DNA of 35,466 nucleotides from a virus (Duplodnaviria; Heunggongvirae; Uroviricota; Caudoviricetes): the IMG/VR virus record IMGVR_UViG_2711768053_000015. One strand, 5' to 3'. Each line of letters starts with the position of its first letter. The stretch's first letter is position 1. The position numbers and the translations under genes were made by a program. The notes beneath the pieces are model-generated. The model had not been told where the DNA came from. It did not search any database and saw only the letters and a program-made list of their open reading frames with translations. Of this stretch, positions 33,934-34,020 are shown piece after piece.

Positions 33934-33960
33934 AAAAAATAAGCCCGTGTAAGGGAGATT
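33934..33960. repeat. attR: attR core, 27-bp direct repeat identical to 477..503
   Basis: Exact match read directly; forms the 3' terminator of cyaR. Confidence 0.85.
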
Positions 33961-34020
33961 ACACAGGCTAAGGAGGTGGTTCCTGGTACAGCTAGCATTT
34001 TATGGGTTATGTTTTTCAGC
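33934..34020 (-). ncRNA. cyaR: CyaR (RyeE) Hfq-dependent small RNA, about 87 nt
   Basis: Reverse complement reads GCUGAAAAACAUAACCCAUAAAAUGCUAGCUGUACCAGGAACCACCUCCUUAGCCUGUGUAAUCUCCCUUACACGGGCUUAUUUUUU, matching the recalled CyaR sequence; lies between ogr and yegQ as in E. coli. Confidence 0.8.

Follow-up and report, generated by a model that had tools for sequence, protein, structure and literature searches.

A P2-type prophage at the 3′ end of the cyaR small RNA gene, a catalogued integration site of Escherichia coli

What becomes of a small RNA (sRNA) gene when a phage genome of about 33.5 kb is inserted into its 3′ end? The question is raised by the 35,466-nt stretch of DNA analyzed here (the window), for which an initial annotation had proposed that cyaR, an sRNA gene, has a prophage in its 3′ end and that the attachment core of the phage rebuilds the terminator of the sRNA. 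Our analysis leaves little doubt that window positions 477-33960 are a complete P2-type (Peduovirus) prophage, that it was integrated in the cyaR 3′ end by its own tyrosine integrase and that it occupies the primary E. coli attachment site of P2, which we take to be the locI of the P2 literature. The locus is a clean textbook case of sRNA terminators, like the 3′ ends of tRNA genes, being usable as phage attachment sites with no loss of the RNA. For annotation it means that the limits of the prophage should be set at 477 and 33960 and that cyaR is to be kept as an intact gene.

The prophage, its boundaries and the sRNA gene

A scan of the whole window with Rfam gave CyaR_RyeE (RF00112) as the single above-threshold match, on the minus strand from 34022 to 33937; the match spans model positions 1 to 85 of 85 and reaches 100.7 bits (E 3.4e-19), where the gathering score is 47. 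Alignment of positions 33934-34020, minus strand, to the 87-nt cyaR gene (ryeE, b4438) of E. coli K-12 MG1655, the comparison by which the identification of the sRNA could be checked, gave 87/87 identical positions, so the claim that cyaR had been kept intact on integration holds. As in K-12, yegQ/trhP is immediately upstream of cyaR on the same strand (34105-35466, minus strand; Pfam Peptidase_U32, 5.2e-89, and annotated so in the matching genomes), where it forms the right host flank; the left host flank carries yegR (1-318, plus strand), a 105-aa ORF that aligns to K-12 yegR (b2085) and to yegR of prophage-free genomes. Upstream of cyaR we read a putative promoter (34028-34070, minus strand) with a candidate -10 element, TATCAT, at 34033-34028 and a CRP-like site, TGTGATCGGTTTCTAA, at 34055-34070, which has the apparent form TGTGA-N6-TCTAA and is centered at about -42.5; the cAMP-CRP dependence of the cyaR promoter is known from the literature, as summarized in PMC3333887.

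The limits of the prophage are given by a 27-mer, AAAAAATAAGCCCGTGTAAGGGAGATT, of which the window has exactly two copies, at 477-503 and at 33934-33960, both on the plus strand and with 0 mismatches. The same 27-mer is the annotated attP (24356-24382) of phage P2 (AF063097). A chance repeat was ruled out, as none of 100 dinucleotide-preserving shuffles (0/100) gave a match even when 3 mismatches were allowed. The right-hand copy, at attR, is the last 27 nt of cyaR; the possibility that the core falls outside the sRNA was also ruled out, for it overlaps 27 nt of cyaR as defined in K-12 and 24 nt of the Rfam match. The left-hand copy, at attL, is a displaced 3′ fragment of the cyaR terminator. 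When the prophage was excised in silico by joining window positions 1-503 to 33961-35466, the resulting 2009 bp aligned end to end, across the yegR-cyaR-yegQ region, with the prophage-free E. coli NT1N34 and MMC-J-0078 at 98.1% and 97.8% identity, respectively. The prophage, therefore, starts and stops at the core, which is what conservative site-specific recombination would give, and the unoccupied attB of these two E. coli consists of the left flank, the core and the right flank, while the core that is common to attP and attB stands as a direct repeat at both prophage ends. With an exact 27-bp repeat bracketing 477-33960 and its right copy ending cyaR, the initial placement of the prophage in the 3′ end of the sRNA gene is confirmed.

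Beside the core copy at attL, as had also been claimed, lies int (583-1596, minus strand), which encodes a P2-type tyrosine integrase of 337 aa (Pfam Int_N, 1.3e-24; Phage_integrase, 5.7e-22); the int region is 98.1% identical to P2 at the nucleotide level. The other attachment features were placed by transfer of coordinates from P2 AF063097, the alignments of window and P2 being gapless on both sides of the core. On the P′ side, these are a predicted Cox-binding region of attP (520-593, plus strand; P2 24399-24472) and the Int P′ arm sites CTGTGGACACTGTGTGGACA (591-617, plus strand; P2 24470-24496), which are identical in the window. At the opposite end is the gene for the late-gene activator, ogr (33614-33832, plus strand; Pfam Ogr_Delta, a zinc finger, 2e-21), which aligns to P2 ogr (24036-24254). 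It is followed by the intrinsic terminator of ogr and the F operon (33843-33866, plus strand; P2 24265-24288), a hairpin with U6 that was missed by a simple terminator scan and is supported by folding (dG -19.6 kcal/mol, z -5.4) and by the P2 annotation. Next come the Int P arm sites GATGTGGTCAATGTGTGGAC (33871-33898, plus strand; P2 24293-24320), identical in the window, P2 and K-12, and the IHF site of attP (33902-33935, plus strand; P2 24324-24357), which abuts the core and in whose last ~18 nt several bases differ from P2 and match the K-12 remnant discussed below. Arm-type Int sites, for which the consensus tgTGGaCa has been given (PMC3448106), are present as direct repeats on both arms, together with a P-arm IHF site whose region is partly diverged.

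According to the initial annotation, the phage late terminator and the Int arm sites are situated within about 60 bp of the sRNA. The IHF site abuts the cyaR 3′ end, from which the Int P-arm sites are 36-63 bp away and the ogr/F-operon terminator 68-91 bp; the figure, a fair approximation, thus holds for the arm sites but is a little too low for the terminator.

Over the 24 kb of the late region (10000-33960) the window shares 95-96% identity, across about 86% of the length, with Peduovirus genomes. Taken together, the repeat, the transferred features, the protein domains and the identities to P2 and Peduovirus lead to the conclusion that the prophage runs from 477 to 33960 (given here on the plus strand), is about 33.5 kb long from core to core and is P2-like.

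At the nucleotide level the resemblance to P2 ends near window position 1840, with about 1.4 kb of the query covered. The immunity repressor (1712-2083, minus strand) is a 123-aa HTH_3 protein whose listed ORF starts at TTG, and it is not P2 C; the closest phage for the repressor region is vB_EcoM-720R8, at 99.6%.

How the core maps onto the CyaR terminator

The intrinsic terminator of CyaR (33942-33969, minus strand) was found both by folding and by a terminator scan as a hairpin with an 11-bp stem and a 6-nt loop, followed by the tail UAUUUUUU at 33941-33934, i.e., a 3′ end with a U-tract of the Hfq-binding type. In the fold, the 5′ arm occupies 33969-33959, the loop 33958-33953, the 3′ arm 33952-33942 and the tail 33941-33934. 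The core (33934-33960) takes in 27 of these 36 nt: it holds the tail (8 nt), the 3′ arm (11 nt) and the loop (6 nt) in full, but of the 5′ arm only the last 2 nt. The first 9 nt of that arm (33961-33969) belong to the host and lie beyond the core. Read on the cyaR strand the core is AAUCUCCCUUACACGGGCUUAUUUUUU, that is, the terminator loop, descending arm and U-tract. As a reverse complement of the CyaR terminator, hairpin and U-tract together, the attR core was thus described correctly for the loop, the descending arm, the U-tract and the last 2 nt of the ascending arm but not for the other 9 nt of the ascending arm; the claim is about three-quarters right. The further claim, that the core rebuilds the CyaR terminator, is borne out, since the ascending arm of the host is joined to an identical core and the hairpin is found at attR.

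Of the two core copies it is the one at attR alone at which folding and scans found a terminator. The attL copy is without the ascending arm; the terminator scan gave no terminator-like site there, and the int-sense RNA of the attL core folded no better than its shuffles (z -0.22). The sequence 3′ of the CyaR U-tract is that of the phage (ACGCGTAATAC...) in the lysogen and that of the host (ATGCATAAGCC...) at the empty site.

How would integration leave the sRNA whole? AttP and attB have the 27-bp core in common, and Int with IHF would exchange strands inside that identity. Following the characterized P2 system, whose sites are annotated in AF063097, Int would bind the core and the tgTGGaCa arm repeats, IHF would bend the P arm and Cox would direct excision. 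AttR has the structure P arm-core-B′, in which the host-encoded ascending arm is joined to an identical core, leaving CyaR unchanged through its last U, and attL the structure B-core-P′, a non-functional duplicate of the 3′ fragment beside int. What we observed directly is the repeat and the fact that it is identical to P2 attP, together with the exact boundaries, a cyaR that is unchanged and a terminator fold that is intact; we found nothing against an explanation by P2-type integration. From the transferred sites we infer that Int, IHF and Cox act where they do in P2 and that the prophage is probably still able to excise.

The arrangement had been likened to that of tRNA-targeting integrases, and the analogy is apt even though the target itself is an sRNA. 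As with elements that target tRNA or tmRNA genes, such as the P2-like phage 186 in tRNA-Ile and Fels-2 and SopE-phi in ssrA (PMC3448106), the core overlaps a structured RNA gene at its 3′ end, which is thereby regenerated, and the displaced 3′ fragment stays behind at the opposite junction. There are, however, several differences: the target in the window is an Hfq-type sRNA and not a tRNA or tmRNA; it is an intrinsic terminator, not an acceptor or T arm, that is duplicated; the core is a short one of 27 bp that holds only part of the hairpin; and the intact RNA gene is beside ogr, not int. Because its target is an sRNA, we regard the cyaR case as an analog of the tRNA/tmRNA paradigm and not as a strict member of it. 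Other sRNA attachment loci, which we know from the literature alone, are rybB for P2-type prophages (the rybB ncRNA of Table 2 in PMC3032704, which also gives the ssrA tmRNA as an insertion site) and the sdsR/ryeB locus in Salmonella (PMC3333887); there, too, an sRNA gene is the anchor for horizontally acquired DNA, although the sRNAs and the cores are different ones.

Related integrases do not all target cyaR. For that of the Klebsiella phage ST16-OXA48phi5.4, whose int region has 73.7% nucleotide identity, cyaR was rejected as the target, because its junction, read at positions 1130-1180 of the corresponding locus (L005), is GGGAAAAAAAGCCCCGTCGGGTGCG... beside a diguanylate cyclase gene.

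Occupancy of the cyaR site in E. coli and other enterobacteria

Is a P2-type prophage at this position a novelty? It is not: the cyaR 3′ end is a classical P2 integration site, and since it has been catalogued before and about 15-21% of complete E. coli genomes have it occupied, the arrangement is known and contains no new biology. The site, as locI with a 27-nt core, was reportedly defined by Barreiro and Haggard-Ljungquist in 1992, who are also said to have described the K-12 remnant. In the E. coli W genome paper, Table 2 gives "cyaR RNA" as the insertion site for Wphi2 (P2 type, strain W), "ogr-D′" (K-12) and P2*B (B) (PMC3032704). That table is the only explicit statement of cyaR as an insertion site in the literature that we searched; in a survey of P2 integrases (PMC3448106), cyaR is unmentioned. 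We found the attR junction (from the ogr end through P arm and core to cyaR, in a match required to cover at least 80% of the query) in 1156 of the 5426 complete E. coli genomes and the attL junction (the core between the yegR flank and the int end) in 812, and the excess of attR over attL includes remnants like that of K-12.

Compared with the P2 attP and its E. coli attB, the window has an identical 27-bp core and identical Int P and P′ arm repeats, the same order of features (ogr, terminator, P arm, IHF, core, Cox, P′ arm, int) and the same host neighbors, with yegR on one side and cyaR and yegQ/trhP on the other. It departs from P2 in its immunity region, at several bases of the IHF region (last ~18 nt) and in the cargo at the two P2 variable hotspots. 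In the RefSeq record of K-12 MG1655, the cryptic prophage PR-X (2167183-2167811; ogrK-yegZ, the "ogr-D′ remnant") overlaps the last 18 nt of cyaR (2167114-2167200). Its attR junction is base-for-base identical to that of the window from ogr through cyaR, but K-12 keeps only about 0.6 kb whereas the window has the whole prophage.

At the left junction of the K-12 remnant (2167811-2167814, compared with window positions 494 / 33320), the first ~18-19 nt of an attL-type core (…TAAGCCCGTGTA) are fused to an internal site of gene D, GCGTTGCGGAGTT, and this fusion site resembles the rest of the core, GTGTAAGGGAGATT. The resemblance suggests that the left end of the remnant may have arisen by an Int-mediated deletion at a pseudo-att site. 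That the junction falls at core nt ~18-19 also points to a possible crossover close to where loop and arm of the terminator meet.

Could the element in the window be a defective remnant as well, fixed at cyaR like the ogr-D′ of K-12, with its repeat a relic without ongoing recombination? Remnants are common at cyaR, to judge from the 1156 attR against the 812 attL junctions, K-12 contains one of 0.6 kb, and even the "empty" sites hold a fossil P arm (see below). Against this, both cores of the window are perfect 27-mers, int is a full-length ORF of 337 aa with both domains, the element, at about 33.5 kb, has the size of P2 (33,593 bp) and, over its late region, it is collinear with the genomes of infectious Peduovirus and 95-96% identical to them. 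We consequently think it unlikely that the window holds a defective remnant and retain the interpretation of a complete P2-type prophage.

Host DNA directly to the left of the attL core contains a fossil P-arm-like stretch (428-476, plus strand), in which the 15 bases TCGATGTGGTCAATG are identical to the P2 P arm and are followed by ...GTGACCAG, with a 16-bp gap in the IHF region. The fossil is found in prophage-free E. coli loci also (L003, 2452-2500; L004, 2460-2508), and among complete genomes most E. coli, nearly all of them, match the fossil flank through the core. As even the "empty" attB has a fossil P arm, the new prophage came to lie next to a scar of earlier date. In the position expected for the ogr terminator, the fossil has a hairpin, GCACGATGCC...GGCATCGTGC.

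A scan of species-representative genomes, with a pattern made up of the CyaR seed and the terminator loop, gave at least 120 cyaR loci, from Proteus, Xenorhabdus and Yersinia to Escherichia, in which the loop AAUCUCCCUU is flanked by covarying stems. Among the matches listed, five loci have a P2-type IHF site (GAAATAAAAGGATTTATTTC), Int-arm repeats (GTCCACACATTGACCACATCGA) and an ogr-type terminator directly 3′ of the species' own cyaR terminator; they belong to Citrobacter sp. Awk 4, "Bacterium BS0013," a Buttiauxella MAG, Enterobacter sp. UNJFSC 003 and C. youngae. With P-arm sequence at cyaR in these five other representatives, use of the cyaR 3′ end by the P2 family is not confined to E. 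coli. When Ogr, D, U, T, E, FII, FI and Int were searched by tblastn against the five loci, as 8-kb slices that are too short for longer prophages, only an ogr/D′ remnant in Citrobacter youngae was found. In C. youngae, ogr (70% aa identity) and D′ fragments are about 1.1-1.5 kb from cyaR.

Do these fossils mean that the CyaR terminator is itself derived from a phage, an ancestral P2-like phage having given the sRNA its 3′ end, as opposed to a phage having copied host sequence? A P-arm fossil beside the core in nearly all E. coli, and also abutting cyaR in the five other enterobacterial species representatives, would be in keeping with such an origin. However, more than 100 Enterobacterales species among the matches listed, from Proteus and Xenorhabdus to Escherichia, have the same loop between stems that covary and are specific to the species, and in most of them P2-type sequence is absent downstream. 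Such a distribution agrees with an old host terminator tracked by phage cores, and we consider a phage origin of the terminator to be very improbable. On a milder reading, the cyaR 3′ end may be an ancient integration hotspot for P2-family integrases across the Enterobacteriaceae, in which even "empty" sites bear P-arm scars, as in nearly all E. coli and in five of the 120 other species representatives listed, and the phage cores would seem to track the covarying terminator stem while having the invariant loop in common.

The 10-nt loop region AAUCUCCCUU, which the search pattern required, is exact in more than 100 Enterobacterales species among the matches listed, and the stem covaries. AAUCUCCCUU is also upper-case in the Rfam consensus, and such conservation is unusual for a terminator loop. 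To us it reads as anti-Shine-Dalgarno-like, similar to the CyaR seed.

Transcription across attR and the variable cargo

If any part of this locus is new, a prospect that we rate as slim, it is transcriptional cross-talk between cyaR and ogr/attR. Might the integration be silent structurally but not in its regulation? In that case, cAMP-CRP-driven transcription that fails to stop at the CyaR terminator would pass over the IHF and Int sites of attR and enter ogr in the antisense direction, so that the carbon status of the cell would modulate excision or late-gene activation; conversely, occupancy of attR by Int and IHF could affect CyaR termination. The geometry is suitable, in that cyaR and ogr are convergent, with only about 100 bp from the cyaR 3′ end to the ogr stop codon, and the IHF site abuts the cyaR U-tract. 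On the minus strand, the strand of cyaR, the ogr terminator hairpin has no U-run after it, and thus nothing obvious would halt readthrough before ogr. In a reporter study the CyaR terminator showed about 41% intrinsic readthrough (PMC9765468), although that value comes from a plasmid reporter construct and not from the cyaR-prophage locus. Moreover, K-12, with its ogrK remnant, has the same cyaR-ogr geometry, and no such effect was found in the literature that we searched. Late gene control in P2, for its part, is understood to depend on the Ogr protein together with replication. Were the cross-talk real, P2 excision or late-gene activation would be tied to carbon starvation. On balance we doubt that it occurs, and the P2-type integration at a catalogued site remains our reading of the locus.

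The cargo of the prophage at the variable hotspots has little or no annotation. The P2 Z/fun hotspot, situated between FI and the genes of the tail fibre, holds two ORFs, 25187-26101 (plus strand, 304 aa) and 26250-26825 (minus strand, 191 aa), with no match in Pfam, NCBIfam, PHROG or PADLOC. The cargo at the P2 old/tin hotspot (6300-10186) comprises a C5 cytosine DNA methyltransferase gene (6502-7659, plus strand) and, convergent with it, a two-gene unit that consists of a PF20553 "putative O-methyltransferase" (phrog_19983; 7610-8602, minus strand) and a GHKL-type ATPase (HATPase_c_3, phrog_20521; 8599-10023, minus strand). This stretch had no megablast match in 50,697 phage records, and its two minus-strand genes had no PADLOC match; the old/tin cargo could be an uncatalogued restriction- or defence-type module.
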